From NCBI GenBank assembly GCA_963754485.1, contig CAVWFY010000011.1, forward strand, positions 156,833 to 220,832: a stretch of DNA of 64,000 nucleotides, written 5' to 3'. Source of the DNA: an uncultured Chloroflexia bacterium (lineage in GTDB: Bacteria; Chloroflexota; Limnocylindria; Limnocylindrales; CSP1-4). The translations under genes and the position numbers were made by a program. Below are positions 4,728 through 52,716 of the stretch, piece after piece. The notes beneath the pieces were generated by a model. The model ran no database searches, was not told the DNA's origin, and saw only the letters and a list, made by a program, of their open reading frames with translations. The first letter of the stretch is position 1; every line of letters begins with the position of its first letter.

Positions 4728-6893
4728 TCAGCGCCCGGCGCGGTTCCGCGGGGCCGGCGGGAGCCTGCGCGACCCCTTGACAAGGAAGTGGTCGAACCAG
4801 TCGCGGACCTGGACGAGGTTCTCCGCGCGCCGGAACGGGGCGCCGCCTCGCGTGAGCTCGTGGCTCTCGTCGGGGACGCGCATGAACCGGACCGGTCGCT
4901 TGAGCGACCGGAGGACCGTGAACAGCGCCTCGGCCTGGCCGACGGTGGTGCGCAGGTCGCGCTCCGCGTGCTGGATGAGCAGCGGCGTGTGCACGTTCGC
5001 GGCCAGCGACAGCGGTGAGATCGCGTGGAAGTAGTCCGCGTCCTCCCATGGGTTGCGCCCGAACTCCATCCTTGCCCACTCGCCGCCCGAGATGTCCCCG
5101 GTGAGGAACAGCGTCCGCATGTCGACGACGGAGCGGCACGTGACGGCGGCCTTGAACCGGCCGCTCTTGCCGATGATCCAGTTCGTGAGGTAGCCGCCGT
5201 AGGAGCCGCCCGTGACACCCAGGCGGTCGGGGTCGGCCAGCCCGTCCGCGATCGCCTGGTCCACCCCGGCGACAACATCGGCCATCGGGCCATCGCCCCA
5301 GTCGCCCAGGTTGGCCCGGTTGAATGCCTCGCCGTACCCCTCCGAACCGCGGGGGTTCGAGGCCAGGACGGAGATCCCGGCACCCGCGAGGACCTGCCAT
5401 TCGAGCATCGGGGACCAGCCGTAGAGCGTGTGGGGTCCGCCGTGGATCTCAAGCACCAGCGGGCGGGCTCCCGGGCCGCCCGGGAGCAGCCAGCCCTGGA
5501 TCTCGAACCCGTCACTCTCCCAGCGACGCTCCACGGGCTCGACCAGCGCCAGCTCCGCGGCAAGCTCGTCGTTAAGCCGCGTGACGGTGCGCGGCGCGGC
5601 GGCCGGTCCTCTCGCCGGGACGTCGAGGACGACGACCTCGGGCAAGGCAGTGCCGGCCGAGCGGATCGCGGCTACGAGGTCGCCTTTGCCCTGGGCGGCC
5701 GGACGGGCGTCCCAGCCGGCGAGGTAGTGGCGATCCGTCGTGAGGCGCACGGGCTGGCCACCGCCGGCGATCGCCACGCGCCACAGCTCCAGCGAGCCGT
5801 CCACGGGAGCCGTGAACAGGACGTGCGCCCCGTCCGCCGAGATCCTGATGGCCGGCTCGCCGCCGATCGTCACGTCGCTGTTCATCGCGGCATCCGGCTT
5901 GAGCTCGCTGTCGGCGAGGAGGTCCGTGCCTCCACCCGCGCCCGCGTCGGAGCCATCGGCGGCAAACCGCCAGATCCCCGTCCGGTAGCCGGACCGCGGG
6001 AAGCGGTCGCCGAGGGCGAGGATCGCGGAGCCGTCACGGGTCCAGACGGGGTTCGTGAAGGTGGCATCGGCGCCGCCGGCGATCGTCGTCACTGCGCCCG
6101 TAGCGGTGTCCACGACGTGGATCCCGGACCGCCAGTGAAGATCGGGGTCCGTCCGCCGGTTCGCGGCAAAGGCGATCCGCGTCCCGTCCGGCGACCACGC
6201 GGGCCCGGCCTCCGCCGACGGGCCGCTCACCAGGGCGCGTGCCGTGCCGCTGACCGCGTCCACGAGCCACAGGTGGCTCTCGCGGTCGTCCACGAACCCG
6301 GCTCCGTTGTACTGGTAGCCCAGGCGGTCGATGTAGCGGTAGTCGGATAGCGGCGTCTCGCCGGGCTTGGGCTTGGCCGGCCGTCCGCGACGGCGCTCGT
6401 CCTCCTTGGCCGTGGCGCCCAGGGAGCTGGTCAGGACGGCGAGCTGGGTGCCGTCCGGGGACCAGGCGAACTCGTCCACGCTGCGGGGCAGGTCCGTCAG
6501 GCGACGCGCCTCGCCGCCGTCGAGCGGCAGCAGGTGGACCTGGTCGCAGTCCTGGCGGTCCTTCACATCCCTGGGCCGGTCCGGCTCCTCCTCGATCAGC
6601 ACGCGGCGGTCCGAGATGAAGGCAAGGGTGCGCCCGTCGGGCGAGAACCGAGGGTGGCGGTCCGTGCGCCCGCCAATCGTCAGGCGCCGGGCGTCGGCGC
6701 TGCCGTCGGTCGGGGCCAGCCAGATCGCGTGACGGTAGCCGTCCCGGCCAACTGAGCTGCGCTTCACCGTGAAGGCCACGGTACGGCCGTCCGGGGAGCA
6801 ACGCGGCTCGAACGGGACGGCGAGGCGGTAGAGGTCATCAGGGCGCGCGGGGCGGGGCAACGGGGTCCTCCGGGTTGGCGCAGGGGGCGGCAT
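4728..6893 (-). CDS. S9-family serine peptidase with N-terminal TolB-like beta-propeller
   Basis: Repeated SPDG propeller motifs and a C-terminal GGSYGGYLT catalytic serine motif. Confidence 0.8.
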   Translation of the reverse strand: MPPPAPTRRTPLPRPARPDDLYRLAVPFEPRCSPDGRTVAFTVKRSSVGRDGYRHAIWLAPTDGSADARRLTIGGRTDRHPRFSPDGRTLAFISDRRVLIEEEPDRPRDVKDRQDCDQVHLLPLDGGEARRLTDLPRSVDEFAWSPDGTQLAVLTSSLGATAKEDERRRGRPAKPKPGETPLSDYRYIDRLGYQYNGAGFVDDRESHLWLVDAVSGTARALVSGPSAEAGPAWSPDGTRIAFAANRRTDPDLHWRSGIHVVDTATGAVTTIAGGADATFTNPVWTRDGSAILALGDRFPRSGYRTGIWRFAADGSDAGAGGGTDLLADSELKPDAAMNSDVTIGGEPAIRISADGAHVLFTAPVDGSLELWRVAIAGGGQPVRLTTDRHYLAGWDARPAAQGKGDLVAAIRSAGTALPEVVVLDVPARGPAAAPRTVTRLNDELAAELALVEPVERRWESDGFEIQGWLLPGGPGARPLVLEIHGGPHTLYGWSPMLEWQVLAGAGISVLASNPRGSEGYGEAFNRANLGDWGDGPMADVVAGVDQAIADGLADPDRLGVTGGSYGGYLTNWIIGKSGRFKAAVTCRSVVDMRTLFLTGDISGGEWARMEFGRNPWEDADYFHAISPLSLAANVHTPLLIQHAERDLRTTVGQAEALFTVLRSLKRPVRFMRVPDESHELTRGGAPFRRAENLVQVRDWFDHFLVKGSRRLPPAPRNRAGR

Positions 6894-6971
6894 ACGGGCG
6901 GGCGGGCGCCCTGGATCGGGGCCAGTCTATCCCCGGTTCCACGCCGGGCGAGGGGCTACCATCGACGCGCG

Positions 6972-7775
6972 ATGGCCGAGCAGCTCTCCCTCCAGCTCGA
7001 GCCGGCGATGCCGCGCTCCGGCGATGTGGCGCCCATGTGGCCGACCGCCCTCGCCGACCCGTTCGACTCGCCCGACTGGCTGTTCGAGCCCACCTGGGGC
7101 GGGCACCGGGTCCTCGCGTTCGTCGAGCCCGGGGCGACGGCGGGAAGCGGCACGGTGCGGGTCGTGGACGCGCGGGGCACGGAATTCGGGGAGCAGCTCC
7201 CGGAGCTGGCAGGGCTTGCCGTGCGGGTGGCAGCGCGGTCCGCGGTGCTCGACGGGGAGCTCGTCGTGGTGGACCCGCACGGCCGGGCCGACGACGAGGC
7301 CCTCCGCGAGCGCCTGTCCGGCCGGCCGGGACGGCCGGTCGCGTTCCTGGTCTTCGACCTGCTCCACCTCGACGGTCGCTGGCTCCTGGGCCAGGCCCTG
7401 GACAAGCGGCGCGCGGCCCTGCACAGGGTGCTGCGTCCGGGCGACGAGGTGGTCGTGGTGCCCGCGATCACGGGCGAGGGCCGGGCGCTCCACGCAGCCG
7501 TCTCGGCACAGGGGATCGCGGGTGTGCTCGCGCGCCGGCGCACGAGCCCCTACCTGCCCGGCGTCCGCAGCACGCTGTGGCGGTCGATCCTGGCCACGCC
7601 GCCCGGGGAGTCCTCCGCGCCGGAGAAGGCCGGCGCGCCAGGTGAAGGCGCCACGGGCGATGAGCCGGCGGGCGATCCGGCCGCCGCTTCGGCCACCGGC
7701 ACGGCGCCCGTCCTGGCGATGTTCCGGCGCCTCCCCTTCCCCGACGAACCCTCCGAGGACGGGCCGGGAGGCTGA
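6972..7775 (+). CDS. ATP-dependent DNA ligase-like nucleotidyltransferase-domain protein; motif I lysine absent; no OB domain
   Basis: FEPTWGGHR in place of KxDGxR; motif III AVLDGELVVVD and motif IV FLVFDLLHLDG present; 267 aa with a low-complexity tail. Confidence 0.5.
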   Translation: MAEQLSLQLEPAMPRSGDVAPMWPTALADPFDSPDWLFEPTWGGHRVLAFVEPGATAGSGTVRVVDARGTEFGEQLPELAGLAVRVAARSAVLDGELVVVDPHGRADDEALRERLSGRPGRPVAFLVFDLLHLDGRWLLGQALDKRRAALHRVLRPGDEVVVVPAITGEGRALHAAVSAQGIAGVLARRRTSPYLPGVRSTLWRSILATPPGESSAPEKAGAPGEGATGDEPAGDPAAASATGTAPVLAMFRRLPFPDEPSEDGPGG

Positions 7776-9101
7776 TCAGCTCCCGCGGACCGCGTGGAGG
7801 AACGTGCGCACCGTCGGCGGCTGCCCGTACATCAGGACACCGGCCCGGTAGACGCGGATCGCGAGCAGCGTGACCAGGGGCACCGTGGCGATCAGCAGCC
7901 CGAGCGAAAGCGCCAGCTCCCAGGGCTCCACCCGGCCGGTCGCCAGGCGGGCCATCATCACGAACGGGCTCCACAGCGGCACGTAGGACGCGAACTTGAT
8001 GAACCAGGAGGTGCTCCCGGACAGGGCGAGCACGGCGGGCAGGTAGCCCATGATGGCCGGGATCGAGAGCGGCAGGGCGACGATCTGCAGGTCTTCGGGG
8101 CGGCTGAGCAGCGAGCCCGCCCCGGCATACAGAGCCGCGTAGAGCGCGAACCCCAGCACGAAGTAGACGAGGAACGCCGCGATGAGTCCCGGGGACAGGC
8201 CCGCCATCGACGACGCGGCGGTCGGATCCTCGCCCAGCAGCATGTTGCCCAGCTGGCCGGACGCGACCACCATCATCAAGGCGGGCAGGAGGATGAGCGA
8301 CACCTGCGTCAGCCCCGCCAGGCCGATGCCCGCGATCTTGCCGACCACGAGCTGGGGTGCGGTCGCCGCGGAGATCAGCAGCTCCATCACCCGGCTCGCC
8401 TTCTCCGCCACGATCCCGGACGCGACCCACAGCCCGTAGAAGACGAGCGTCAGGAACGACAGCACGACGAACACGATGCCGACGATCCGCCGGCTCGCAT
8501 ACTCCGCGGTGTCGATCGCCTCGCCGCCCCCAGACGCCGCCGCACCGGCGTCCACCACGGCGAACGTCGGGGGCACGAACGGCCGGTCCGCCGCGGGCTG
8601 CGACGCGGTCCAGTCCAGGATTCCCACGGCGAACGACCCGACCTGGAGCAGCTGCGCCCGGTCCTGGCCCAGCCCGCCGACCGTGACCACCCGGAAGTCG
8701 AGCCCCCCTTCCGCGGTGCGCTCGATGAGGACCGCGCCGGCGACCAGCCCATCGCTCACCGCGTCGACGGCCGCGTCCCGGTCATCCATGCGCTCGAACA
8801 GGAAGGTCTTCTGCTCGCCAGCGGTGCTGTCCAGCTGGGCGTTGAGGAACCCGTCCATCACGCCCACGGCCCGCTGGCCCAGGTCCGGGTCCGCCGCCAC
8901 GACGGCCACCCGCGTCACGGTCGCCCGGTCCACGGCGCGGATCGCCAGCGGGATCAGTGCCATGACCATGGCGAGGCCGGCCATCAGGAGGGTCGAGAAC
9001 AGGAAGGCACGGGACCTGACGCGCTCCGTGTACTCCCGGCGCGCGACGAGGCCGACATTACGGGCGAGGGCGCCGCGGCCGGTCGGAGCCTCGTGCGTCA
9101 C
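7776..9101 (-). CDS. ABC-2 type transporter permease
   Basis: Multi-TM C-terminal part of the 926-aa ORF; GTG start at 9099-9101 overlaps the ATPase stop (GTGA). Confidence 0.75.
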   Translation of the reverse strand: MTHEAPTGRGALARNVGLVARREYTERVRSRAFLFSTLLMAGLAMVMALIPLAIRAVDRATVTRVAVVAADPDLGQRAVGVMDGFLNAQLDSTAGEQKTFLFERMDDRDAAVDAVSDGLVAGAVLIERTAEGGLDFRVVTVGGLGQDRAQLLQVGSFAVGILDWTASQPAADRPFVPPTFAVVDAGAAASGGGEAIDTAEYASRRIVGIVFVVLSFLTLVFYGLWVASGIVAEKASRVMELLISAATAPQLVVGKIAGIGLAGLTQVSLILLPALMMVVASGQLGNMLLGEDPTAASSMAGLSPGLIAAFLVYFVLGFALYAALYAGAGSLLSRPEDLQIVALPLSIPAIMGYLPAVLALSGSTSWFIKFASYVPLWSPFVMMARLATGRVEPWELALSLGLLIATVPLVTLLAIRVYRAGVLMYGQPPTVRTFLHAVRGS

Positions 9102-10190: not shown

Positions 10191-10571
10191 GTGCAGGACC
10201 CCCGGATCACTCCCCTTCGCATCGATGCCGACCGGGCCGCCGGCACCCTTCGCATGGGCTGGGCGGACGGGCACGCCACGACCTACGACACCGTCACCCT
10301 CCGCTGGCTGTGCCCGTGCGCCTACTGCCGCGGCGAGGCGGGTATGCCCGGCTGGCTGGACTCGAACCCCACGCTGACGGCCGAGCAGACGCGCCTCGTG
10401 GACGTGGCCCTCGTGGGCGCCTACGCCATCCAGGCGACCTGGGGCGACGGCCACGCCACGGGCTACCACACGTTCGACCTGCTGCGCGACATGTGCCCGT
10501 GCGGCGAGTGCACGCGGGCCCGTGAGCAGCGGCTCGCAGAGGATCGCCACTCGCACGGAGAGGACCGATGA
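10191..10571 (+). CDS. DUF971-family protein (gamma-butyrobetaine hydroxylase N-terminal-like; Cys-rich)
   Basis: Duplicated DGHAT.Y....LR..CPC..C motif. Confidence 0.7.
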   Translation: MQDPRITPLRIDADRAAGTLRMGWADGHATTYDTVTLRWLCPCAYCRGEAGMPGWLDSNPTLTAEQTRLVDVALVGAYAIQATWGDGHATGYHTFDLLRDMCPCGECTRAREQRLAEDRHSHGEDR

Positions 10572-10921
10572 TCATCACGACTACGCCGTTCGTCGCCGGG
10601 TATCGCGTCACCGAGACCCGCGGGCAGGTCTTCGGGCTCGTCGTCCGCAGCCGGGGCCTGGGCGGCAACATGGTCGCCGGTCTTCGGTCCATCATGGGCG
10701 GCGAGATCCACGAGTACACGAGCCTCCTCGAGGACACCCGCCGCCAGGCCATCGATCGCATGGTCCAGAACGCGACCATCATGGGGGCGAACGCGGTGAT
10801 CTCGATGCGCTTCGACTCGACCGAGCTGGCCGGGACGATGTCCGAGATCGTGGCCTACGGGACCGCGGTCTTCCTGGTTCCCGACGAGGCCGCGGTCCAG
10901 GCGGTCCCGGCGATCGAGTAG
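10568..10921 (+). CDS. YbjQ/UPF0145-family protein
   Basis: GYRVTETRGQVFGLVVRSRGLGGNMVAGLRSIMGGEI..., a typical YbjQ sequence; ATGA overlap with DUF971. Confidence 0.8.
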   Translation: MIITTTPFVAGYRVTETRGQVFGLVVRSRGLGGNMVAGLRSIMGGEIHEYTSLLEDTRRQAIDRMVQNATIMGANAVISMRFDSTELAGTMSEIVAYGTAVFLVPDEAAVQAVPAIE

Positions 10922-10924
10922 GCC

Positions 10925-11278
10925 GTGGGCGTGATGCTCGCGCGGGTCCTGGTCGGGACCCTGGGCGTCCTGCTCATCCTGGGCGGCATCGGCCTCGCCG
11001 CCGTCACGGGACCGGGTGGCAGCCTCGGTTCCGCGCTGTTCCTGTTCGTGCCCGGCGTGCTCATGATCGCCGCCGTGATCCTGGAGCGGACGCGATACCG
11101 CTCCCTCCACTCCGAACGGACCGGGGACAACTACGGCCCCGGGGGCGGCGAGCCGGGCGCCCCGGAGCCGCGCTTCCGGCCCACGGACGAGCGCTTCGTG
11201 GATCCCACGACGCACGTCGCGATGCGCGTCTGGCTGGACCCGGCCACCGGCGAACGGAGGTATGTGCCGGAGGGCTGA
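10925..11278 (+). CDS. Small membrane protein, hypothetical
   Basis: Two predicted TM helices; no recognisable family. Confidence 0.45.
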   Translation: MGVMLARVLVGTLGVLLILGGIGLAAVTGPGGSLGSALFLFVPGVLMIAAVILERTRYRSLHSERTGDNYGPGGGEPGAPEPRFRPTDERFVDPTTHVAMRVWLDPATGERRYVPEG

Positions 11279-11387
11279 GACTGGCCCACTCCGGCGCGGT
11301 GGTATTCTCAACGGCCAAACCCGGACCGGGACGCGTGGCCGCCAGCATCGGCAGTGCGCCGGGCCTGAGCGCAACCGCGAGAGGACC

Positions 11388-13559
11388 ATGGCCACCGTTC
11401 GACCCGCCCCCGGACCTCGTGTCGCAGGCCGCGGTCGACGTCGGGCCGCCCGCGATCAGAAGGGTCCGATCCTCAACCGCGAGCTCTCCTGGATCGAGTT
11501 CAACGCGCGCGTCCTGCACGAGGCTCGCGACACGCGCAACCCGCTCCTGGAGCGCGTGAAGTTCCTCGCGATCTTCGCGTCCAACCTGGACGAGTTCTTC
11601 CAGGTCCGGGTATCCGGCCTGCGGCGCCAGGACCGGTCGCGCAGCGTCCACCACAGCCTCGACGGCCTCACGCCCTCCCAGCAGCTGGACGCTATCCGCG
11701 ACCGTGTCCGGGAGCTCATCGGCGACCACTCCGACATCTGGATGGAGATCCGCGCGGAGCTGGCCGCGGAAGGCGTGCAGATCCACGACTACGACGAGGT
11801 TCCGGAGCACCACGAGACCCTGCGGCGCCGCTTCCACGACGAGATCTTCCCGGTGCTGACACCGCTCGCTGTGGACCCCGGTCATCCGTTCCCCTACATC
11901 AGCACCCTGAGCCTGTCGATCGCCGTCGGCCTGCGCGACCCGGAGACCGGCGAGCGGCGCTTCGCGCGCGTCAAGATCCCGCCGATCCTCCCCCGCCTGT
12001 TCGCCGTGGAACGCGACAGGTTCGTGCTCCTCGACCAGGTCATCGAGGCGAACCTGGACGAGCTGTTCCGGGGCATGGAGATCCTGGAGACGCACCTGTT
12101 CCGGGTGACCCGCGACGCGGACATCGCGATCGAGGAGGACGAGGCCGACGACCTGCTGCTGGCCATCGAGGAGGAGATCCGGCGGCGGCGCTTCGGCGAG
12201 GCCGTCCGCCTCGAGGTGGAGCGCTCCATGCCGGAGCTCACGCGCCAGATCCTGATCAAGGGGACGGGCGTACGGGACGAGGACGCCTTCGAGGTCGCCG
12301 GCATGCTGGATCTCACGGCGCTGTGGCAGTTGGTGAGCCTGGATCGCCCGGATCTCAAGGCCCCGGTCCACAGCCCGGTGATCCCCCAGCGGCTGCTGCC
12401 GCTGGACGAGGACGAGCCCACGGACGTCTTCGCACAGATGCGCGCGGGCGACATCTTCGTCCATCACCCCTACGAGTCGTTCACCGCGTCGACGGAGCGG
12501 TTCATCGACCAGGCCGCGGACGATCCCGAGGTCCTCACGATCAAGCAGACCCTGTACCGGACGTCTGGCCAGTCACCGATCGTGGGCGCACTCATCCGCG
12601 CCGCGGAGGCGGGCAAGCAGGTCGTGGTGCTGGTCGAGATCAAGGCCCGCTTCGACGAGGAGAACAACATCGTCTGGGCCCGCCGCCTCGAGCAGGCCGG
12701 CGCCCACGTCGTGTACGGCCTGGTCGGCCTCAAGACGCACTCCAAGGTGGCCCTGGTGGTGCGGCGGGAGGGCAGCGGCCTCCGCCGCTACATCCACATC
12801 GGCACCGGCAACTACAACGGCAAGACCGCGCGCCTGTACACGGACCTCGGGTTGCTGACCTGTCGCGAGGAGCTTGGCGCGGATGTCACCGACCTGTTCA
12901 ACGTCCTGACCGGCCTGTCCCGCCAGCGCGTCTTCCGTCGTCTGCTCGTCGCCCCGATGACCATGCGCACGCGGTTCATCGAGATGGTGGAGCGCGAGAC
13001 GGCCCACGCGCAAGCCGGCCAACCGGCCCGCATCGTGCTCAAGGTCAACTCGCTGGTGGACGTCCAGGTGATCGAGGCGCTCTACGAGGCCTCGAGGGCC
13101 GGCGTGGAGATCGACCTCATCGTGCGCGGCGCGTGCTGCCTGGTCCCGGGTGTCGAAGGTGTCAGCGAGCGGATCCGCGTCCGTTCGATCATCGGCGAGT
13201 TCCTGGAGCACTCCCGGATCTGGATGTTCAGCAACAGCGGGCGCGCCGAGTGGTACATGGGCTCGGCGGACCTCATGGAGCGCAACCTTGACCGGCGGGT
13301 CGAGGTGGTGACACCGGTCGAGGACCACGAGGCCCAGGCCCGCCTCGCCCGGATCATCGAGGTCCTCCTCGCGGACGACCGCCGGTCGTGGCAGCTGGGG
13401 GCGGACGGGCGGTGGGCACGGACGGAGGTCCTCGAGTCCCGCGAGGGCACGGTGGAGACCTTCGCCGTCCTCAAGGAGGACGCCGCGACCGCGAGCGCGC
13501 TGGCCGACATCCCACGCCGTCCGCACGCGAATGCGGGCTCGATGGATCCTCGGGCATGA
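11388..13559 (+). CDS. ppk: Polyphosphate kinase 1
   Basis: LNRELSWIEFNARVLHEA, FLAIFASNLDEFFQVRV, and two PLD-like HSK motifs; start taken at MATVRPAP. Confidence 0.9.
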   Translation: MATVRPAPGPRVAGRGRRRAARDQKGPILNRELSWIEFNARVLHEARDTRNPLLERVKFLAIFASNLDEFFQVRVSGLRRQDRSRSVHHSLDGLTPSQQLDAIRDRVRELIGDHSDIWMEIRAELAAEGVQIHDYDEVPEHHETLRRRFHDEIFPVLTPLAVDPGHPFPYISTLSLSIAVGLRDPETGERRFARVKIPPILPRLFAVERDRFVLLDQVIEANLDELFRGMEILETHLFRVTRDADIAIEEDEADDLLLAIEEEIRRRRFGEAVRLEVERSMPELTRQILIKGTGVRDEDAFEVAGMLDLTALWQLVSLDRPDLKAPVHSPVIPQRLLPLDEDEPTDVFAQMRAGDIFVHHPYESFTASTERFIDQAADDPEVLTIKQTLYRTSGQSPIVGALIRAAEAGKQVVVLVEIKARFDEENNIVWARRLEQAGAHVVYGLVGLKTHSKVALVVRREGSGLRRYIHIGTGNYNGKTARLYTDLGLLTCREELGADVTDLFNVLTGLSRQRVFRRLLVAPMTMRTRFIEMVERETAHAQAGQPARIVLKVNSLVDVQVIEALYEASRAGVEIDLIVRGACCLVPGVEGVSERIRVRSIIGEFLEHSRIWMFSNSGRAEWYMGSADLMERNLDRRVEVVTPVEDHEAQARLARIIEVLLADDRRSWQLGADGRWARTEVLESREGTVETFAVLKEDAATASALADIPRRPHANAGSMDPRA

Positions 13560-15346
13560 CCGAGGTCCCGGGCGCCGGACCGCTCGAGATCGAGCTGAAG
13601 TACCGCATGACCGATGCCACGACGGGCGATCGTCTGCTGGCCGCCGATGATCTCGCAGGGCTGACAGCTGCCGCCCCCGTCGAGACCGTGGTCCACGAGG
13701 ACCGGTACGTGGACACGCCCGACGGTGCGCTGGCGGCCGCGGGGTACGCGGGGCGGTTCCGCTCGAGCGGCGACGAGACGATCATCACGCTCAAGGGCCT
13801 CCACCGGCAGGACGATGGCGGGGCCGCCCATCGGCGCGAGGAGCTGGAGGGTCCCGCGGACCTCGAGACGGCGGCGCCGGCCTGGCCGGAGTCCGCGGCG
13901 CGCGACGCGGTGATCTCGATCGTCGGCGAGGCGACGCTCGGCGAGCTGGTCCGCGTCCGCCAGGTGCGGCGCAAGCGGGACTATGCTGCGAACGGCACCA
14001 TCGTGGAGCTGTCCGTGGACGACGTGGAGGTCGTGATGGGCGACCGCGTGATCGAGCGGTTCGCGGAGCTCGAGGTCGAGCTGCGCCAGGGTGACGAGGC
14101 GGCCCTGGAGCCACTGGTGGATCTCCTGTCCGAGATCGAGGAGCTCGTTCCCGCCGAGACGTCCAAGCTCGAACGCGCCATGGAGGCCGTGCGCCGTGAG
14201 GCGGAGGCGGGCGACGGCGAGCCCGACGAGCCCGAGAAGGACGAGCCGGATGGTGGCGTGACCGGGATCCCGGTCATGGACCGTCCCGCCGATGCCGACA
14301 CCGTTGCCGGGGATGCCGAGCTCCACGCCGACGCCACCGAGGCCGCCGAGGCCGCCGAGACCGTTGAGCCCGAGGCGGACGCCGAACCAGTCCCGGAACC
14401 GCCGCGGATCATCGTCCCCAAGACACCCGGGGTCCTCGCGGACGACCACCTGGCCGAGGCCGGCCGCAAGGTCCTGCGCTTCCACCTGGCCCGAATGATC
14501 ACGCGCGAGCCCGGCACCCGCGTCGGCAAGGACCCGGAGGAGCTGCACGGGATGCGCGTCGCCACCCGCCGCCAGCGGGCGGCGTGGCGGGTCTTCGGGG
14601 ACGCCTTCGACCTCGATCGCACCGACCGTTACCGGCGCCGGCTCAAGCTGGTCGCGGCAGACCTGGGCGGCGTGCGGGATCTCGACGTCCTGATCGAGGC
14701 CGGCGAGAAGTACCAGGGCCGGCAGTCCGCCGTCGAGGCCAGGGCCTTCGAGCCGCTCCTGCAGTCGTGGCGCGTCCAGCGTGAAACCGCCCGCGAGGTC
14801 CTGATCAAGGAGCTCGACAGCAACCGGTACCGCAAGTGGCTCGACGCCTACATCGAGTTCGCCCAGGCGGACGGCATCGGCGCCCGCCAGGTCGGACCCA
14901 CGGATCCGCACCGCGTCCGGGACACGATGCCCTCGCGCATCTGGACCGCCTACGAGGTCGTGCGCGCCTACGAGCCCGTGATGCGCTGGGCCGACGTCAC
15001 GACGCTCCACGACCTGCGCATCGCCGCCAAGTGGCTCCGCTACACGCTGGAGTTCGTGCGCGAGGCGCTCGGTCGCGATGCCGGGCCCGTGATCGAGAAG
15101 GTGGTCGCCCTGCAGGACCACCTGGGCTGGCTCCACGACGCCGACGTCGCCGCCAACCTCGCGCGGGGGTATCTGGTGGAGCACGCGGGATCCCTGTCCG
15201 AGGGGGAGAGCGCCGCCATCGGGCGGTACCTCGTGGACCGCGAGCGGGAGCTGGCCCGCCTGCGGCGGACGGTCGGTCCGCCGTGGCGCGGCGTTGCAAG
15301 CCTCGCATTCCGGCGCTCGCTCGGACGAGTGGTCGCGGGACTCTAG
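13556..15346 (+). CDS. CYTH-CHAD domain protein (triphosphate tunnel metalloenzyme plus CHAD)
   Basis: EIELKY CYTH start, an acidic linker, and a CHAD region (HGMRVATRRQRAAWRVF); ATGA overlap with the ppk1 stop. Confidence 0.8.
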   Translation: MTEVPGAGPLEIELKYRMTDATTGDRLLAADDLAGLTAAAPVETVVHEDRYVDTPDGALAAAGYAGRFRSSGDETIITLKGLHRQDDGGAAHRREELEGPADLETAAPAWPESAARDAVISIVGEATLGELVRVRQVRRKRDYAANGTIVELSVDDVEVVMGDRVIERFAELEVELRQGDEAALEPLVDLLSEIEELVPAETSKLERAMEAVRREAEAGDGEPDEPEKDEPDGGVTGIPVMDRPADADTVAGDAELHADATEAAEAAETVEPEADAEPVPEPPRIIVPKTPGVLADDHLAEAGRKVLRFHLARMITREPGTRVGKDPEELHGMRVATRRQRAAWRVFGDAFDLDRTDRYRRRLKLVAADLGGVRDLDVLIEAGEKYQGRQSAVEARAFEPLLQSWRVQRETAREVLIKELDSNRYRKWLDAYIEFAQADGIGARQVGPTDPHRVRDTMPSRIWTAYEVVRAYEPVMRWADVTTLHDLRIAAKWLRYTLEFVREALGRDAGPVIEKVVALQDHLGWLHDADVAANLARGYLVEHAGSLSEGESAAIGRYLVDRERELARLRRTVGPPWRGVASLAFRRSLGRVVAGL

Positions 15347-15397
15347 CCGGAGGGGCGGCGCCGCCTGCGATCAGGGGCCCGGCGCGGCACCGGTCCC

Positions 15398-16605
15398 CTA
15401 CTCGATCGGCCAGTCCTCCTCGGACCAGCCGCGGACCAGCACCCGGAGACGGTCACGCCAGGCCGGACCCGCTGCCGCGGCGGCGATCACGAGTCCCTCG
15501 CGGATCCCCTCTTCGGACACGGTCAGGCGCTCCGCGGCGTAACGCTCCAGGATCGCGTCCACGATGATCGCCCCGGCCGGCAGGATCCGTGCGCGGGCCG
15601 GTCGGACGAGGTGCCGCTCGGCAGCCTCAAGGCTCCGCTCGACGGTCAGCATCGCGAGCGCCACCGTCAGCCGCCGTCGGGTGAGGACGTGATCCAGGGC
15701 GGTCGCCGGGAGCAGCCGGAGCAGGTTCGCCGCCGTCCCGCCAACCGCAACGATGTCGCCGGGATGGATCGCGGGAGCATCGGCCAGGATCTCCCGGACG
15801 CGAACCCTGACCGCCTCGAGGTCCGCCAGCGTCGGCGGATCGCCGCGCACCAGGTCACGAGTCAGGCGCGCAGCGCCCAGCGGGAGTCCCGTTGCGTGCA
15901 CCTCGCCCGCCGCACTGACGACGACGAACTCGGAGCTGCCTCCGCCGATGTCGACGACGAGCAGATTGGTCTCGATGGGCCGGCCCTTGGTCACGCCCAG
16001 GAGCGTGAGCAGGCCCTCCTCGTCGTGGTCGACAACATGCAGCGGGACGCGGGCGCGCACCTCGACCGCCGAGACGACTGCCGCCGTGTCCTCCGCACGC
16101 CTCAACGGTTCGGTGCCCACGATCGTGATCCGCTCCGCGCCGAGCTGGCGGGCGGTGTCGGCATAGGCGACGAGCGACGCCACGAGCTCCTCCCGGGCAT
16201 CGATGCCCAGATGCCCGTCAGCCGCGACCCGATCGCCAAGGCCCAGGAACACGGACTCGTCAAGGAGCGGCTCCACGCTGTGGCCACCGACCGCCGCGAC
16301 GAGGAGATGGACGCTGGTCGACCCGACGTCAATGGCGGCCCCGATGACGGCCCCGGCCGCGATCTCGATCTTGGCCGCCGCGGGCTCGGGTTCGGGTGAC
16401 GGCTCGATGGGCTCGGGTTCGGGTGGCGGCTCGGGTGACGGCTCGGGTTCTGGCTCAGGTTCTGGTTCAGGTTCAGGTTCTGGTTCTGGTTCAGGTGGCC
16501 TCAGCTCGGGCGCCGGTTCCGGCTCGGCGGCCTCCGGCTCAGCGGCCTCCGGCTCAGCGGCCTCCGGCTCAGGTTCTGGCTCGGGTTCTGGCTCAGCTGG
16601 CCTCC
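15398..16605 (-). CDS. ppx: Ppx/GppA exopolyphosphatase domain; no in-frame start codon near the domain; probably continuous with the lysine-rich ORF upstream after correcting one indel
   Basis: [15 protein letters not shown] followed by DIGGGSSEF; upstream in the same frame only (EP)n repeats and no ATG/GTG/TTG; the rest of the ORF frame (R/P-rich) is a shadow. Confidence 0.75.
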
Positions 16606-16680
16606 GGCTCAGGCTCGGGCTCGGGCTCCACCAAGGGCTCAGGCGCCGGTTCAGGTTCGGGCTCGGGCTCGACGGCCGAA
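16381..16680. repeat. Imperfect GAACCN hexanucleotide (Glu-Pro codon) repeat tract, about 300 bp
   Basis: ggctcgggttcgggt... repeats on the plus strand encode (EP)n on the minus strand; the EP reading phase jumps by one near 16593-16605. Confidence 0.75.
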
Positions 16681-17129
16681 TCCGACGGCACGCGATCAAC
16701 GATGTGGGACGCCGCAGGCTCCCCCACCTGGCGAACGAGGCTGGCGAGCTCCTCGAGCACCGTCCCGGCCGCCGCCGCCAATGCCGTGGAGCGGCCGACT
16801 TCTGCATCTCCCTGCTTCCGGTGTCGCGTCGCCCTGCCGCCCTCCGTATCGGGGGACGTCTTCGGAGCCGCCGCCGCGGACTCCTTCGCGGACTCCTTCG
16901 TGCTCCTCGCGGTGGCCTTCTTGGGCGCCTTCGCGGCCTTCTTGGGCGCCTTCGCGGCCTTCTTCGCGGACTTCCGGGCGAGCTTCTCCGCCTTGTCGGC
17001 GGCCTTCTTCGCGGCCTTCTTCGCGGCCTTGCGGGCCTTCTTGCCGGTCTTGGGACCGCCTGCCAGCGCACCGGCGGCTGACCCTGTGACGCCGGTCGTG
17101 ACCTCGATGTCCCCGGCGTCCGGCATCAC
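16593..17129 (-). CDS. Lysine/alanine-rich histone-H1-like protein; probable N-terminal part of Ppx
   Basis: [42 protein letters not shown], then [16 protein letters not shown] and an EP repeat that ends at a TGA inside the repeat tract; the R/P-rich overlapping frame uses rare AGA/AGG codons and is the shadow. Confidence 0.55.
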
Positions 17130-17256
17130 GTTCCTCCTGACTGAGCTGGGGCACCCGCGACGGAGCGCGCTGTGGCCACCAGTCTGCCGCAGGCGGGAGC
17201 GTCGCGCTGACGGGTACCGCGCGTTGACAACACGTTAACCGGCGTCGAACGAGTCG

Positions 17257-18036
17257 TTGACGGGTGACGCCGATGATCCGCTCGTGGTCGCCTTGCCGCC
17301 TTCCAGTCCCGAACCCAGCCCCGACCAGGTCGCCTGCTTCGCCGGACGGGAGCGGACCGCCTGGCTCGTGCTGGCCAATGGCGGGCCCGCGGTCGCCCTC
17401 CCGGAGCTGGCCGCTACCAGGGCGGTCAATGTCACTGCCGATCCCCGACGCTTCCGGGACATCCTGCTCGCGGAACGACCGAGGATCGTGGTGGTCTGCC
17501 AGCCACCGGCTGGTGACGAGGACCTGGGCCTCGTGGCGTCCGAACGACGCCGTCGACCCCGGCTTCGCGCTCTGCACCTTGCACCCCCGGGGGCCGTCGC
17601 CGACCGCATCGCCGCCCTTGCCCGGGGCTTCGACGACGCGCTCACCACGACGACCACGAGCGGGGAGTTGGCCGCGCGTCTGGAACTGCTCGAGGCTCGG
17701 GCTCGGGAACGTCCCGTGCCCGGCTCCACGCTGCCGGTCGCGCACGGCGTTGAGCTGGACCTGGTCGCTCACGAGGTCCGGCGCGATGCGCTCGCCGTCC
17801 ACCTCCGACCGAAGGAGTTCGGCCTGCTGGCGCTCATGGCGTCCCACCCGGGCCGTGCATACACCCGGCAGGAATTGCTCGAGCGCGTGTGGGGGAAGGG
17901 GCACGAGAGTGGCGTCCGCACGGTGGACGTCCACGTCCGCTGGCTCCGCACGAAGATCGAGAGCGATCCGGAGCGGCCAGCCCATCTCGTGACCGTGCGC
18001 GGCGTCGGCTACCGCCTGGATCCGCCCTTGCGTTAA
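17257..18036 (+). CDS. OmpR/PhoB-family winged-helix regulator with degenerate (pseudo-)receiver domain
   Basis: C-terminal trans_reg_C (LRPKEFGLLALMASHPGRAYTRQELLERVWG...VRTVDVHVRWLRTKIE...VRGVGYRL); the N-terminal 140 aa lack the DD pocket and the phospho-Asp context. Confidence 0.7.
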   Translation: MTGDADDPLVVALPPSSPEPSPDQVACFAGRERTAWLVLANGGPAVALPELAATRAVNVTADPRRFRDILLAERPRIVVVCQPPAGDEDLGLVASERRRRPRLRALHLAPPGAVADRIAALARGFDDALTTTTTSGELAARLELLEARARERPVPGSTLPVAHGVELDLVAHEVRRDALAVHLRPKEFGLLALMASHPGRAYTRQELLERVWGKGHESGVRTVDVHVRWLRTKIESDPERPAHLVTVRGVGYRLDPPLR

Positions 18037-18152
18037 CCGGACCTTAACACCTCGCACACGACCTGTTGACAGCCCGGCCCGAACTTCGGCTCTGTAGAAG
18101 ACCAGAGGCGTCGCACGCGCTCGGGGCGCGACGCCAGACAAGGAGAACCTCC

Positions 18153-19178
18153 GTGACGCTCGCATCAACCAAGCGCATCGGCGCACTCGCCCTGGCTGCG
18201 ACGGTCCTCGTCGCAGCGTGCGGCAGCTCGACGGCCACGTCCGCCCCCGCCAGCGGCGCTCCTGCCGGTGGTGGCGTGACCGGCGCCATCAACGTGTCCG
18301 GCTCGTCCACCGTCGAGCCGATCTCCACGGGTGTGGCCGAGGCGTTCGCGGCCGCCAACGCAGAGTTCACCTACACCGTCGAGGGCCCCGGAACCGGCGA
18401 CGGGTTCAAGAAGTTCTGCGCGGGCGAGACCGACATCTCCGACGCCTCCCGCAAGATCAAGGACGAGGAGGCCAAGGCCTGCGCCGACGCCGGCATCGAG
18501 TATGTCGAGCTCAAGGTCGCGATCGACGGCATGTCCGTCCTGACCTCGGTGAACAACAAGGCGGTCGCCTGCCTCAGCCTCGCTGATCTATACGCGCTGA
18601 TCGGACCCGAGTCCACCGGGTTCGCCAAGTGGAGTGACGCCGCGGCGCTTGGCAAGGAGCTCGGGTCCAACACCGTCTTCCCCGACGCAGACCTCTCCAT
18701 CACCGGGCCCGGCGAGGAGTCCGGCACGTTCGACAGCTTCGTCGAGCTCGCGATCGCGAAGACCGCCGAGAAGCGTGGCCAGGAACCCAATACCCGCCCC
18801 GACTACACCGCCTCGTCCAACGACAATGCGATCATCGACGGGATCTCGGGCAGCGACACGTCGCTCGGCTGGGTGGGCTTCGCCTTCGCCGAGGAGAACA
18901 GGGACAAGGTCAGCGAGATCCAGGTCTCCAAGGACGTCAACGGGACCTGCGTCGCCCCGACTCCCGAGACCATCACCGACGGCTCGTACCCGCTCTCCCG
19001 CGACCTCTTCATCTACGTCAACAAGGCCAAGGCAGCCGCGAACCCCGCCGTCGTCGCCTACGTCGACTACTACCTGGCCGACGGGACGATCGACTCGGTC
19101 CTCCAGACCGTCCCCTACGTCGGCCTCACGGCCGAGGCGCTCGCCGAGACGCGGGCGACCTGGGACGCGTCGAAGTAG
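18153..19178 (+). CDS. pstS: Phosphate ABC transporter substrate-binding lipoprotein PstS
   Basis: AGGAGA RBS at 18141-18146, GTG start, lipobox LVAAC, PstS-like body. Confidence 0.9.
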   Translation: MTLASTKRIGALALAATVLVAACGSSTATSAPASGAPAGGGVTGAINVSGSSTVEPISTGVAEAFAAANAEFTYTVEGPGTGDGFKKFCAGETDISDASRKIKDEEAKACADAGIEYVELKVAIDGMSVLTSVNNKAVACLSLADLYALIGPESTGFAKWSDAAALGKELGSNTVFPDADLSITGPGEESGTFDSFVELAIAKTAEKRGQEPNTRPDYTASSNDNAIIDGISGSDTSLGWVGFAFAEENRDKVSEIQVSKDVNGTCVAPTPETITDGSYPLSRDLFIYVNKAKAAANPAVVAYVDYYLADGTIDSVLQTVPYVGLTAEALAETRATWDASK

Positions 19179-19199
19179 CCCTGCGGCCCTTCTCCTCCG

Positions 19200-19236
19200 C
19201 GAACGGGCCGGCGCGCTTGGGCGCCCGGCTCGTTCG
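19200..19236 (+). promoter_or_regulatory. GC-rich stem-loop between pstS and pstC (intra-operon attenuator or mRNA-stability element)
   Basis: cgaacgggccggcgcgc-ttgg-gcgcccggctcgttcg imperfect inverted repeat read directly. Confidence 0.35.
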
Positions 19237-19289
19237 TTCCCGTATCCTCGCCACCTACCCTCCGACCACACAGGAGCCGTGACCAGCTG

Positions 19290-20219
19290 ATGGCCCAGGC
19301 AAGTCCAGCCCTCCCGGCCGGGATGTCGCTGCGCGGCAGCGCCCGGCGGCGACGTCGCGAGACCATCGTCCGCGGCCTGTTCCTCGCCGCGTCGCTGGTC
19401 ACCATCCTGATCAGCTTGTTCATCATCGAAACGGTCCTTGTCGAGGCGATCAGCTTCCTGTCGCAGATCGATCTCGGCCAGCTGTTCGGCATCGGGTGGT
19501 TCCCACGCCGCGGCATCTTCGACGTCTCGACGATCGTGATCGGGACCCTCATCGTCACGGCGATCGCCATGGTGATCGCGACGCCGGTCGGCATCTTCTC
19601 GGCGATCTACCTCTCCGAGTACGCCACACCCCGCTTCCGGCGGACCGTCAAGCCGGTCCTCGAGGTCCTCGCGGGCATCCCCAGCGTCGTCCTGGGGTTC
19701 TTCGCCCTGACGCTGCTCACGCCGTCGGTCATCAGGCCGCTGTTCGAGGAGGCTAACTCGTTCAACCTCGCGGCCGCGGGGCTGGGCGTCGGAATCCTGT
19801 CGATCCCCCTGGTCGCCTCCGTCGCCGAGGACGCGATGCGCGCGGTGCCCCAGAACCTGCGCGAGGCTTCCTACGGCCTCGGCGCCCGCAAGATCACGAC
19901 GTCACTCCGGGTGGTCTTCCCGGCCGCGATCTCGGGCATCGTGGCCGCGCTCATGCTCGCGACCAGCCGCGCGATCGGCGAGACCATGGTGGTGGCGGTC
20001 GCCGCTGGTGCTCCCCAGGCGCGGACGCTCAACCCACTCGACCCGGGCGGCACGATGACCTCCGCCATGGTCGGGCTGGCCACGGGCAGCGACCAGGTGA
20101 CCGGCAACAGTGCGGCCTTCCAGAGCCTGTTCTTCATCGGGCTCCTGCTGTTCCTCATCACGCTCGTCCTGAACGTCGTGGGCGACGCGTTCGTCCGGCG
20201 CGCCCGGCAGAAGTATTAG
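19290..20219 (+). CDS. pstC: Phosphate ABC transporter permease PstC
   Basis: Six TM helices, EAA-like loop, and position after pstS. Confidence 0.9.
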   Translation: MAQASPALPAGMSLRGSARRRRRETIVRGLFLAASLVTILISLFIIETVLVEAISFLSQIDLGQLFGIGWFPRRGIFDVSTIVIGTLIVTAIAMVIATPVGIFSAIYLSEYATPRFRRTVKPVLEVLAGIPSVVLGFFALTLLTPSVIRPLFEEANSFNLAAAGLGVGILSIPLVASVAEDAMRAVPQNLREASYGLGARKITTSLRVVFPAAISGIVAALMLATSRAIGETMVVAVAAGAPQARTLNPLDPGGTMTSAMVGLATGSDQVTGNSAAFQSLFFIGLLLFLITLVLNVVGDAFVRRARQKY

Positions 20220-20229
20220 GAGCTCGACG

Positions 20230-21171
20230 ATGTCCTCCATCGGCTCCTCCGCCGCGGCAACAAGCGCGAGCGTGCGTGCAGGGATCACGGGCGCCGGGCG
20301 GCGTGACGTCTGGGGCTACGTCTTCCAGGCCTTGCTCCTCGGAAGCCTGCTGGTCTCGCTCGCGATCCTGTTCGTCCTGATCGCGGACGTCCTGGGCCGC
20401 GCGGTCCCGGTCTTCGCGGACCGCGGGCTCGGGTTCCTCACCTCGCCCCTGTCGTCCAACCCCGCCAAGGCCGGGATCGTCCAGGGCCTCGTCGGCACGG
20501 CAATCCTGGCAGCCATCGTGGCGCTCCTGGCCTTCCCCTTCGGCCTGGCCACCGCGATCTACCTCGAGGAATACGCCGCCGACACCAAGCTCACCCGCTT
20601 CATCCAGATCAATATCCGCAACCTCGCGGGCGTCCCGTCGGTGGTCTACGGCCTGTTGGGCCTGTCGGTCTTCGTCGCGTTCATGAACTCAGTGGACGGA
20701 GGTGGGTCCGGGCGCAACATCCTGGCCGGTGGCATCACGCTGGCTGTGCTGGTGCTGCCGATCGTGATCATCACCTCCATCGAAGCGTTGCGGTCCGTGC
20801 CGAACACCATCAGGGAGGCGGGCTACGGCGTGGGGGCCTCGCGCTGGGAGGTGACGCGCCAGCTCGTGCTTCCCTCGGCAGCACCCGGAATCCTGACCGG
20901 CACGGTGCTCGCGCTCTCCCGGGCGCTGGGCGAGACCGCGCCGCTGATCCTGGTCGGGGCCGTCCTCGGATCGTTCTCCGGGCTGTCCATCTCGACCTTG
21001 TTCACCGGCAGCTACACCGCCCTGCCGGTCATCGTGTACGACTGGGCCCGCAAGCCGCAGGAGGCCTTCCGGGCCGACGCCGCCGCAGCCATCGTCGTCC
21101 TGCTCATCATTACGATCGTCGCGAACGTGATCGCGATCCTCCTGCGCAGTCGCTACGAGCGGGCCTGGTGA
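20230..21171 (+). CDS. pstA: Phosphate ABC transporter permease PstA
   Basis: Permease homology and operon position. Confidence 0.9.
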
Positions 21172-22076
21172 TGCCCGACACCACCGGAGAGCCCATGACC
21201 GCCCCGACCATATTCGTCCCCGAGTCCCCCTCGCCGGCTGCGCCCGGACCGGCAGTGCCAATCCACGTCGAGCGCCCGTCGGAGGGCGACGGTGCGGTCG
21301 CGTCCCCCAGGGGCGAGGACGTCATCCGCATCGAGAACCTGGACTTCTACTACTCCAAGTTCCGCGCGGTGAAGGGCATCAGCATCGCGTTCGAAGCGCG
21401 CAAGATCACCGCCCTCATCGGTCCGTCTGGCTGCGGCAAGTCCACCCTGCTCCGGACCATCAACCGGATGAACGACCTGATCACGGGGACCCGCGTCGAG
21501 GGCAAGGTGCTCTACCACGATGTGGACCTCTATGCGAAGGACGTGGACGCGGTCGAGGTCCGCCGGCGGATCGGGATGGTGTTCCAGAAGGCGAACCCCT
21601 TCCCGAAGTCGATCTACGACAACGTCGCGTTCGGCCCCCGGATCAACGGCTACAAGGGCAACATGGACGAGCTCGTCGAGTCGAGCCTGCTCCGTGCCGC
21701 CCTCTGGGACGATGTGAAGGACAAGCTCAAGCAGTCCGGCCTGGCCCTCTCGGGCGGCCAGCAGCAGCGTCTGTGCATCGCGCGGGCCATCGCGACCAGC
21801 CCGGATGTCATCCTGATGGACGAGCCGTGCTCCGCACTGGACCCGCGCTCCACGCTCCAGATCGAGGAGCTGATGTTCGAGCTCAAGGAGCAGTACACGA
21901 TCGTCATCGTGACCCACAACATGCAGCAGGCCGCCCGCGCGTCGGACTACACGGTGTTCCTGAACATGGCCGACGATCGGGCGGGATACGTCGTTGAAGA
22001 GGGGCCGACGCTGGGCATCTTCACGAACCCCCAGAACCAGCTCACCGAGGATTACGTCTCCGGCCGGTTCGGCTGA
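21168..22076 (+). CDS. pstB: Phosphate ABC transporter ATP-binding protein PstB
   Basis: [31 protein letters not shown]; the start overlaps the pstA stop (GTGA). Confidence 0.9.
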
Positions 22077-22095
22077 GCGGCGGAGGAGCAACCCC

Positions 22096-22869: not shown

Positions 22870-23378
22870 GCCAGCCGCAAGACCGGGACGACCATCACGA
22901 TCACGGCGCGTTCCACGGCGAGGCGGCCCCCGTCCGGGTCCTCGTCGTGTGCACCGGCAACAGCGCCCGCTCGATCCTCGGCGAGGCGCTCCTGCGACAC
23001 CTCGGTGGCGACCGGATCGAGGCCCACTCCGCGGGCACGCACCCGGGCCCGGTCAACCCGCTGAGCCTGCGCGTCCTCGAGGAGGCCGGCATTTCGACGG
23101 AGGGGCTTCGCTCCAAGTCCATCAACGAGTACCTGGGCCAGAGGTTCGACTACGTGATCACCGTGTGCGACGACGCCCGCGACGCGTGCCCGGTCTTCCC
23201 GGGTGTCCACGAGTCCATGCACTGGGGGTTTCCGGACCCGGCGAAGGCCACAGGAACAGACGAGGTCCGGCTCGCGGCGTTCCGCTCCGTGCTGACGGGC
23301 CTCGGACAGCGGATCCACCAGTTCCTCCCCCTGGCGGAGCGCTACGCTGCCCAGCGAACACCCATCGAGCTCGCATGA
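22866..23378 (+). CDS. Arsenate reductase ArsC / low-molecular-weight protein-tyrosine-phosphatase family enzyme
   Basis: P-loop VLVVCTGNSARS (CX5R) plus downstream Cys pair (ITVCDDARDACPVF); ATGA overlap with phoU. Confidence 0.75.
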   Translation: MSQPQDRDDHHDHGAFHGEAAPVRVLVVCTGNSARSILGEALLRHLGGDRIEAHSAGTHPGPVNPLSLRVLEEAGISTEGLRSKSINEYLGQRFDYVITVCDDARDACPVFPGVHESMHWGFPDPAKATGTDEVRLAAFRSVLTGLGQRIHQFLPLAERYAAQRTPIELA

Positions 23379-33460: not shown

Positions 33461-33476
33461 CCGCGGCCCCAGCGGG

Positions 33477-52604: not shown

Positions 52605-52716
52605 TGTCGCCCATCGCGTTGCCTTCGGGATCGTGAATGCCCGATGTACCCTACGGCCGAGGCCGGACCTGCGGCGCGCACGACCTCACCAGTCACCACC
52701 CGGTGATGGCAGATGG

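Follow-up and report, generated by a model that had tools for sequence, protein, structure and literature searches.

LIGL, a conserved lysine-less branch of the LigD ligase family in Limnocylindria, and its putative docking peptides

We analyzed a 64,000-nucleotide stretch of DNA from an uncultured Chloroflexia bacterium (assembly GCA_963754485.1, contig CAVWFY010000011.1, positions 156,833 to 220,832; hereafter, the window), focusing on an open reading frame (ORF) for a ligase-like protein of 267 residues that we call LIGL. LIGL is a core gene of Limnocylindria (Chloroflexota) that evolves under strong purifying selection, and it belongs to a pseudoenzyme branch within the LigD ligases that had not been described before. 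Judging from its alignment with active ligases, it is devoid of every class of residue used for lysine adenylylation and phosphodiester synthesis. We propose, giving the idea an even chance of being right, that LIGL is a pseudo-ligase derived from an end-joining ligase and that it now docks, as an adaptor, to the sliding clamp, to the Ku/LigD machinery, or to both. The features of the gene and its product are as follows, with coordinates given in the window.

6972..7775, + strand: LIGL gene, encoding a complete ligase-like pseudoenzyme of 267 aa (ORF, coding GC pattern, and homologs)
6981..6998, + strand: N-terminal peptide 4-QLSLQL-9 (family Q-L-[ST]-[LF]-x-L), which fits the beta-clamp hexapeptide QLxLxL
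7002..7601, + strand: degenerate LigD-type nucleotidyltransferase (NTase; adenylation) domain, residues ~11-210 (PF01068, AlphaFold2 [AF2], and Foldseek)
7092..7109, + strand: motif I, degenerate, 41-TWGGHR-46 (canonical KxDGxR; KWDGYR in Mycobacterium tuberculosis LigD), with Lys changed to Thr and Asp to Gly, and with Gly and Arg kept
7242..7274, + strand: motif III, kept, 91-AVLDGELVVVD-101 (VVLDGEAVVLD in M. tuberculosis LigD), with D94 invariant and E96 near-invariant
7341..7376, + strand: motif IIIa, kept, AFLVFDLLHLDG, aligned to EFWAFDLLYLDG of M. tuberculosis LigD, with D129, L131, and G135 invariant
7518..7538, + strand: motif IV, degenerate, 183-AGVLARR-189 (canonical EGxxxK; EGVIAKR in M. 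tuberculosis LigD), with Glu changed to Ala and Lys to Arg
7575..7592, + strand: motif V, degenerate, 202-LWRSIL-207 (canonical WxKxK; WLKDK in M. tuberculosis LigD and WLKVK in the relative P0184), with both Lys replaced
7596..7700, + strand: acidic, low-complexity, disordered linker, residues ~209-243 (~33 aa), with AF2 confidence of 48-66 and a net charge of -5
7701..7748, + strand: C-terminal peptide 244-TAPVLAMFRRLPFPDE-259 (family [TAS]-A-P-V-L-A-L-[FI]-[RS]-R-L-P-[FL]-acidic), with a predicted short helix at 245-253

A degenerate ligase domain kept by selection

The LIGL ORF has a coding-type content of guanine plus cytosine (GC) over the three codon positions (0.81/0.60/0.88, i.e., a GC3 of 0.88) in a window of ~72% GC, and its homologs include copies that are 100% identical and others that are 68-95% identical. 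A preliminary description of this DNA had recognized a ligase-like NTase domain in the ORF, and this was confirmed by a PF01068 match over residues 35-203 (E=6e-14; 52.6 bits versus a cutoff of 26.2), a score above the gathering threshold that places the protein in the ligase superfamily by fold. The nearest relatives of solved structure are entries for the M. tuberculosis LigD ligase domain (1vs0, 6nhx, and 6nhz; E~1e-20). The top matches in NCBIfam were models of nonhomologous end joining (NHEJ) and LigD ligases, each scoring far under its curated cutoff (TIGR02779, 110.3 versus 227.75; NF007210, 116 versus 989; TIGR02776, 82 versus 373), so that LIGL belongs to none of these equivalogs. The mRNA capping enzymes (PF01331), to which the preliminary description had also likened the protein, have the same covalent nucleotidyltransferase superfamily fold. 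However, LIGL has no significant match to them (E=0.36; 11.1 bits versus a cutoff of 29.6) and no motif I lysine, and all its strong matches are DNA ligases; the capping-enzyme relationship was therefore rejected. An origin in phages or a role in antiphage defense was likewise rejected, LIGL having no PADLOC match and a PHROG match that was weak and generic (phage ligase; E=6e-4).

The AF2 model of LIGL, computed from a 124-sequence alignment that included canonical ligases, had a mean predicted local distance difference test score (pLDDT) of 87 overall and >94 for residues 11-210, where values ran from 88 to 98, with disorder at residues ~211-243, and a short helix at 245-253. When this model was compared with the PDB using Foldseek, the M. 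tuberculosis LigD ligase ranked first (6nhx/1vs0/6nhz; root mean square deviation of 2.2-2.6 Å over ~196 columns; 33% identity), followed by archaeal and human ATP-dependent ligases. The protein had no PF04679 match, and the ~57 residues after the NTase domain were modeled as disorder plus the one short helix, in agreement with the earlier remark that no OB domain is present. As modeled, LIGL is a complete LigD-type NTase domain without an OB domain.

Catalytic motifs were assigned by a residue-by-residue alignment of LIGL to M. tuberculosis LigD. This upheld two of the earlier readings, namely, that the lysine and the aspartate of motif I are both replaced and that motif III is kept, and corrected a third: the stretch FLVFDLLHLDG, previously labeled motif IV, is motif IIIa (FWAFDLLYLDG in M. 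tuberculosis LigD), and the degeneracy of the true motif IV (AGVLAR) and of motif V (WRSIL) had gone unremarked. The two proteins are also alike in the segment S-P-Y-x-P-G-x-R-S-x-x-W, and LIGL keeps the residues on the adenosine side of the pocket (G44 and R46 of motif I, D94/E96, and F128/D129). At the lost lysine positions, R188 stands in for that of motif IV and R204 adjoins that of motif V. There are only two lysines in the whole window protein, K145 and K219, the second of which sits in the variable linker. Because the residues of motifs I, IV, and V and the OB domain have been lost, LIGL is predicted to be inactive, unable to adenylate itself or to seal nicks in DNA.

The same substitutions characterize the family. 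A word-indexed protein search retrieved 2,277 relatives of LIGL, and in the best 120 of these 2,277 (68-100% identity, 242-312 aa), motif I read [TS]WGGHR in 120 out of 120, so that the substitution cannot be put down to a sequencing error, a doubt that the preliminary description had raised. The pool of all sequences gathered comprised 228 unique members of the family lacking the lysine, in which its site was occupied by T (107), S (48), W (48), R (6), or A (5) and also by N, V, and L, while the aspartate site was Gly in 214 of the 228. Motif IV took the A..R form in 174 of them, whereas the lysine-bearing relatives have E..K, and the lysine sites of motif V held S/F/A and A/P/L/V. That the old lysine site varies so freely, beside a fixed W-G-G-x-R, suggests that it has no chemical role now. 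No lysine was invariant, either in a 32-sequence alignment or in an alignment spanning 38-79% identity. The sole semiconserved one, K145, alternates with arginine (94 K to 97 R), the median is one lysine per protein, His45 is variable over the family, and no lysine or histidine is conserved anywhere; we therefore rejected a relocated catalytic lysine or histidine. A profile search against 1.84 billion cluster representatives revealed many 50%-identity clusters of ~250-aa FEPxWGGxR proteins, which shade gradually into canonical KWDGxR ligases. Some of these representatives (P0127, P0145, P0149, P0151, and P0214) switch in mid-protein to an unrelated Arg/Ala-rich sequence; they look like genes called with frameshifts on low-quality assemblies, and they make the family seem more diverse than it is.

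Could LIGL nonetheless be a decaying fragment, a sequencing error, or a miscalled ORF? It does resemble a shortened LigD ligase domain that trails off into low-complexity sequence, and some cluster representatives are visibly frameshifted. Yet the ratio of nonsynonymous to synonymous substitution rates (dN/dS; pairwise Nei-Gojobori method, core residues 1-210, 74 ortholog pairs) was 0.04-0.14, with a median of 0.12, and the same substitutions recur in the 228 unique sequences and in the 369 species-level genomes with relatives that were found by a one-genome-per-species scan. The best 80 of these 369 were all from Chloroflexota, mostly labeled Limnocylindrales, and the carriers of the gene include the complete Limnocylindria genomes OY970218.1 and OY969796.1. 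Members also agree in start, length, and terminal motifs, and the fold model is confident. These data on conservation and selection refute decay or error, to which we give practically no credence. Since LIGL is conserved and selected, it is a pseudoenzyme rather than an erroneous or decaying gene, and we regard this status as firm: homology to enzymes, missing catalytic residues, and selective maintenance, which together make up the operational definition of a pseudoenzyme, are all found here. The earlier suggestion of a degenerate ligase pseudoenzyme thus stands, given the family-wide loss of motifs I, IV, and V, the lack of a compensating lysine or histidine, and an omega of ~0.12.

ATP-dependent DNA ligases are defined by the lysine of motif I, and we found no description of a conserved and selected paralog lacking both this lysine and the OB domain. 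Full-text literature searches on ligase pseudoenzymes returned only ubiquitin-E3 "pseudoligases" and general reviews of pseudoenzymes, and neither a recent review of ligases nor a paper on Limnocylindria genomics mentions such proteins. Most JGI entries for the ~250-aa lysine-less proteins are named "bifunctional non-homologous end joining protein LigD" or "ATP-dependent DNA ligase," and the NCBI names for lysine-less homologs are "hypothetical protein" or "ATP-dependent DNA ligase." Hundreds of these homologs carry a ligase name that misstates their function, and the genomes concerned would be wrongly credited with ligase or NHEJ capacity.

Terminal peptides and Ku/LigD-linked relatives

Both ends of LIGL carry short conserved peptides, and the first of them, at the N-terminus, is part of a strongly conserved family pattern (M-x-[DE]-Q-L-S-[LF]-x-L-E). 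The form Q-Phi-x-Phi-x-Phi (QLSLRL, QLSFRL, QLSLQL, and so on) occurred in 217 of the 228 lysine-less members; Q4 and L5 do not vary at all in the alignment of 38-79% identity, and 68 annotated N-termini have Gln at residue 4. The C-terminal peptide, whose family pattern ends in [DE]-[DE]-[DE] after [FL], was present in 209-210 of the 228, ~6 residues before the C-terminus. It is preceded by an unconserved linker of variable length (median of 29 residues, range of 19-137). The preliminary description had considered the last 90 residues to be of low complexity, but only residues ~209-243 are disordered, since residues 178-208 lie within the fold and the conserved motif starts at residue 244. 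It had also overlooked the terminal peptide motifs, the operon link of relatives to Ku/LigD described below, and the incidental nature of the neighboring ABC-2 gene.

Peptides that bind the beta clamp follow a pentameric QLxLF or a hexameric QLxLxL consensus (PMC4564189), and in Escherichia coli Hda the clamp motif is the N-terminal 6-QLSLPL-11 (PMC5397184). The LIGL peptide 4-QLSLQL-9 fits the hexameric form, and, as in clamp binders such as Hda and Pol IV (QLVLGL), it forms part of a flexible segment, here at the extreme N-terminus. The first half of the C-terminal peptide, V-L-A-L-F, recalls the pentameric form, although this likeness is weaker. We thus consider the N-terminal peptide a putative beta-clamp docking peptide and predict that it binds DnaN physically. 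LIGL is not homologous to Hda or to the polymerases, and the same peptide is found on an active ligase encoded next to Ku, so that the partner could differ.

Compared with the LIG domain of LigD and with stand-alone NHEJ ligases (1vs0, 6nhx, and 6nhz; TIGR02779), LIGL shares the fold and motifs III and IIIa, and it differs in having lost the catalytic residues of motifs I, IV, and V, the OB domain, and motif VI. It also differs in its terminal peptides, each of which was found in 0 of 188 full-length LigDs of Chloroflexota (i.e., absent from 188 of 188). The closest intact relatives of LIGL adjoin Ku or LigD, and such adjacency was seen only among its more distant relatives. One of them, P0184 (344 aa), is catalytically intact (KWDGLR, EGVVAK, and WLKVK), comprises the NTase and OB (PF04679) domains, has the N-terminal peptide DQLQIEL and a C-terminus ending in ...DLTRFPF, and is encoded directly after Ku in loci L087 (7138-9035), L088, and L089. 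Its peptides may reveal a route by which polymerase-less NHEJ ligases are recruited.

Another relative, P0144 (362 aa), has lost the lysine (FEPSWDGLR, with Lys changed to Ser) and retains the OB domain, an N-terminal DQLTLQL, and a C-terminal LLALLQRLPLPED. Its gene lies 4 bp upstream of that of a 932-aa full-length LigD (PE-LIG-OB-PrimPol; L084, 1585-5476), and this pairing of a LIGL-type gene with LigD was observed in five out of five metagenomic contigs long enough to tell. The operon (L084, L085, L090, L091, and L093) is preceded by an HTH_5/HTH_20 regulator, and the DeoC/HTH/DUF971 synteny of the window locus is seen again at the P0144 loci. The arrangement looks like a pseudoenzyme-enzyme pair. 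A further relative, P0257, reads FETRWGGIR in motif I and keeps the OB domain (PF04679) and both peptides. A plausible series runs from an active small ligase that is linked to Ku and carries both peptides, through lysine-less NTase-OB proteins paired with LigD, to the NTase-only protein of the window, and LIGL plausibly has its origin in a clade of small end-joining ligases that share the two terminal peptides.

Candidate roles of LIGL

As a docking adaptor, LIGL would act in DNA repair as a noncatalytic adaptor or regulator. Its folded domain would offer a LigD-like surface on which another protein, an end or nick in DNA, or an adenine nucleotide could bind, while the N-terminal QLSLxL and the C-terminal ...PVLAL[FI]RRLP[FL] peptides, together with the flexible acidic linker, would dock it to a ring-shaped hub bound to DNA. 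The C-terminal peptide may occupy a second clamp cleft or may bind Ku/LigD. For the N-terminal peptide, we favor the beta clamp because of the exact QLxLxL match and the Hda-like position, and also because ATP-dependent ligases of other domains of life use N-terminal clamp peptides that begin with Gln. The PCNA-interacting peptide (PIP) box of LIG1 is an example; the replicative ATP-dependent ligases of eukaryotes and archaea are tethered to PCNA by such an N-terminal box, and T4 ligase binds the gp45 clamp. LIGL similarly combines an NTase domain with a Gln-initiated clamp-type peptide at its N-terminus, but the PCNA- and gp45-bound ligases are active and have OB and DNA-binding domains, whereas LIGL consists of the NTase domain only and is presumably dead. 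A role in protein-protein contacts is favored over strong autonomous binding to DNA because the core is near-neutral.

A looser parallel can be drawn with the noncatalytic NHEJ scaffolds XRCC4, XLF, PAXX, and APLF, which carry Ku-binding motifs in their tails. LIGL would resemble them in outline, with a folded head, a disordered linker, a basic and hydrophobic C-terminal peptide (...RRLP[FL]), and a link to end joining. Their folds are unrelated to that of LIGL and the likeness is an analogy; bacterial Ku also lacks the vWA domain to which the eukaryotic Ku-binding motifs bind. A more specific version of the adaptor proposal, in which LIGL is a dead bivalent hub binder whose peptides plug the clefts of the beta clamp and/or bind Ku, thereby coupling the clamp to double-strand-break repair or gating access to it, seems to us rather doubtful.

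Several observations weigh against docking as proposed here. The near-neutral to acidic core of LIGL (net charge of -2, pI of 6.2, versus +3 and 9.0 for the NTase domain of M. tuberculosis LigD) disfavors strong autonomous DNA binding. The clamp assignment derives from a pattern of six residues, and AF2 gives both terminal peptides a confidence of just 57-70. Ku is an equally logical partner because the active relative encoded next to it has the same N-terminal peptide. Within 10 kb of LIGL, neither the window nor any of 80 related genomes encodes Ku, LigD (including Prim-Pol and PE modules), dnaN, or another repair function, and the 64-kb window as a whole holds no Ku, LigD, Prim-Pol, or PE module, no dnaN, and no other obvious repair partner. 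Finally, the match lists of LIGL and LigD had no contig in common, which leaves their co-occurrence in the same genome open.

Ku/LigD is the main alternative partner because of the gene neighborhoods of the relatives, and docking to it and to the clamp would not be mutually exclusive since LIGL has two peptides. The two diverge if LIGL is an accessory factor specific to Ku/LigD, having inherited both peptides as recruitment motifs from a stand-alone NHEJ ligase and having no dealings with a sliding clamp. It could then scaffold NHEJ structurally, by a logic like that of the noncatalytic XRCC4, XLF, and PAXX, activate LigD as its "prozyme" partner, or restrain end joining by competition. We hold this tentatively, as a serious possibility with a good deal less than an even chance. 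It would account for the position of the active P0184, with both its peptides, immediately downstream of Ku and for that of the lysine-less OB-containing relative just upstream of LigD in every informative contig. The lack of the peptides in full-length LigDs also speaks for it; in M. tuberculosis, full-length LigD binds Ku via its polymerase domain. LigD is moreover present in the order, full-length copies occurring in metagenome-assembled genomes of Limnocylindrales. On the other hand, neither Ku nor LigD is encoded within 10 kb of LIGL in the window or the 80 related genomes, no contig was shared by the LIGL and LigD match lists, and the N-terminal peptide fits the clamp consensus exactly, while we know of no bacterial Ku-binding peptide motif with which it could be compared.

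We considered two further explanations. Noncovalent binding of nucleotides, which the preliminary description had suggested, or of 5'-adenylated DNA is possible because the adenosine-side residues are kept, and LIGL might be a sensor that binds adenosine, AMP, ATP, NAD+, or a 5'-adenylated DNA end and reports or sequesters it without chemistry. We find this unlikely. Several of the retained residues (G44, R46, D94/E96, and F128/D129) are invariant at 38% family identity, and the conserved neighborhood holds PPK, CYTH-CHAD, and Ppx, which relate to polyphosphate and ATP; however, these residues double as core structural elements of the fold, those contacting phosphate and metal are all gone, and genes on the opposite strand intervene, so that the neighborhood is not an operon in the window. 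It is very unlikely that LIGL is a cryptic enzyme in which a nucleophile at a new position supports nucleotidyl transfer or some novel reaction. Catalytic residues have migrated in pseudoenzymes of other families, and R204 and R188 lie beside or in place of lost lysines, but the family conserves no lysine or histidine, the residue at the nucleophile site is free to vary (T, S, W, R, A, N, V, or L), and the OB domain, which ligases require for step 1, is absent.

If LIGL does dock to the clamp or to Ku, it would be a new noncatalytic component of bacterial DNA repair and a bacterial counterpart of the eukaryotic noncatalytic NHEJ scaffolds. It would also provide a handle on how stand-alone NHEJ ligases without a polymerase domain are recruited, and the covalent nucleotidyltransferase (ligase/capping) superfamily would gain its first functional pseudoenzyme.

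Genomic neighborhood

LIGL is a solitary unit in the window. A scan of positions 6700-8000 found no promoter or terminator, a result that says little in DNA of 73% GC. The genes around LIGL are as follows.

4728..6893, - strand: S9-family peptidase (Tricorn_N/PD40/Peptidase_S9), the divergent upstream neighbor, conserved
7776..9101, - strand: ABC-2 permease, convergent, with its stop codon abutting LIGL; the homolog in L001 carries PF12698
9098-~10051, - strand: ABC ATPase, paired with the ABC-2 permease
10191-10571: DUF971 protein
10568-10921: YbjQ
10925-11278: transmembrane (TM) protein
~11385-13559: PPK
13388-15346: CYTH-CHAD protein
15398-17071, - strand: Ppx
17257-18036: response regulator
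18066-21171: PstS/C/A-like proteins
21994-22869: PhoU

The gene order S9 peptidase/LIGL/.../DUF971-YbjQ-TM-PPK is kept over 81 genome loci and can still be seen in relatives at 38-47% identity. The S9 peptidase adjoins LIGL in 64 of the 81 genome loci and in most metagenome loci, and it does so in relatives with as little as 38-40% identity. The clade with the LIGL-LigD operon lacks it, and no functional link between it and LIGL was evident.

The convergent ABC-2 gene at 7776-9101 (-), already noted in the preliminary description, was confirmed. Relatives have a P-type ATPase instead of the ABC pair (L082) or lack the pair altogether (L083/L174). Given this variation among relatives, the neighbor is incidental, and a functional link between LIGL and the exporter was rejected. 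The start of the permease gene (GTG at 9101) overlaps the stop of the ATPase gene by 4 bp (GTGA), which is typical of translational coupling.

A phosphate/polyphosphate block (10191-23000) lies directly downstream, and its DUF971-YbjQ-TM-PPK-CYTH/CHAD part stands beside LIGL even at 38-40% identity; in L174, DUF971 begins 18 bp past the LIGL-type gene on the same strand. This adjacency could be plain synteny or could reflect a true link to polyphosphate/ATP metabolism. The remaining genes of the window are related to housekeeping, sugar, and phosphate/polyphosphate functions. A 1,002-aa ORF at 52693-55701 (-) has no Pfam match and overlaps ORFs on the + strand at 52225-54330 and 54574-56790 (AAA_22 plus LuxR/GerE); this is probably a shadow ORF produced by the high GC content. 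The pair formed by a GDPD phosphodiesterase and an Exo_endo_phos protein (32767-34235, -) is also syntenic in the distant relative L174 (15023-16472), and the Exo_endo_phos protein could be a nuclease of the AP-endonuclease type or a phosphatase.

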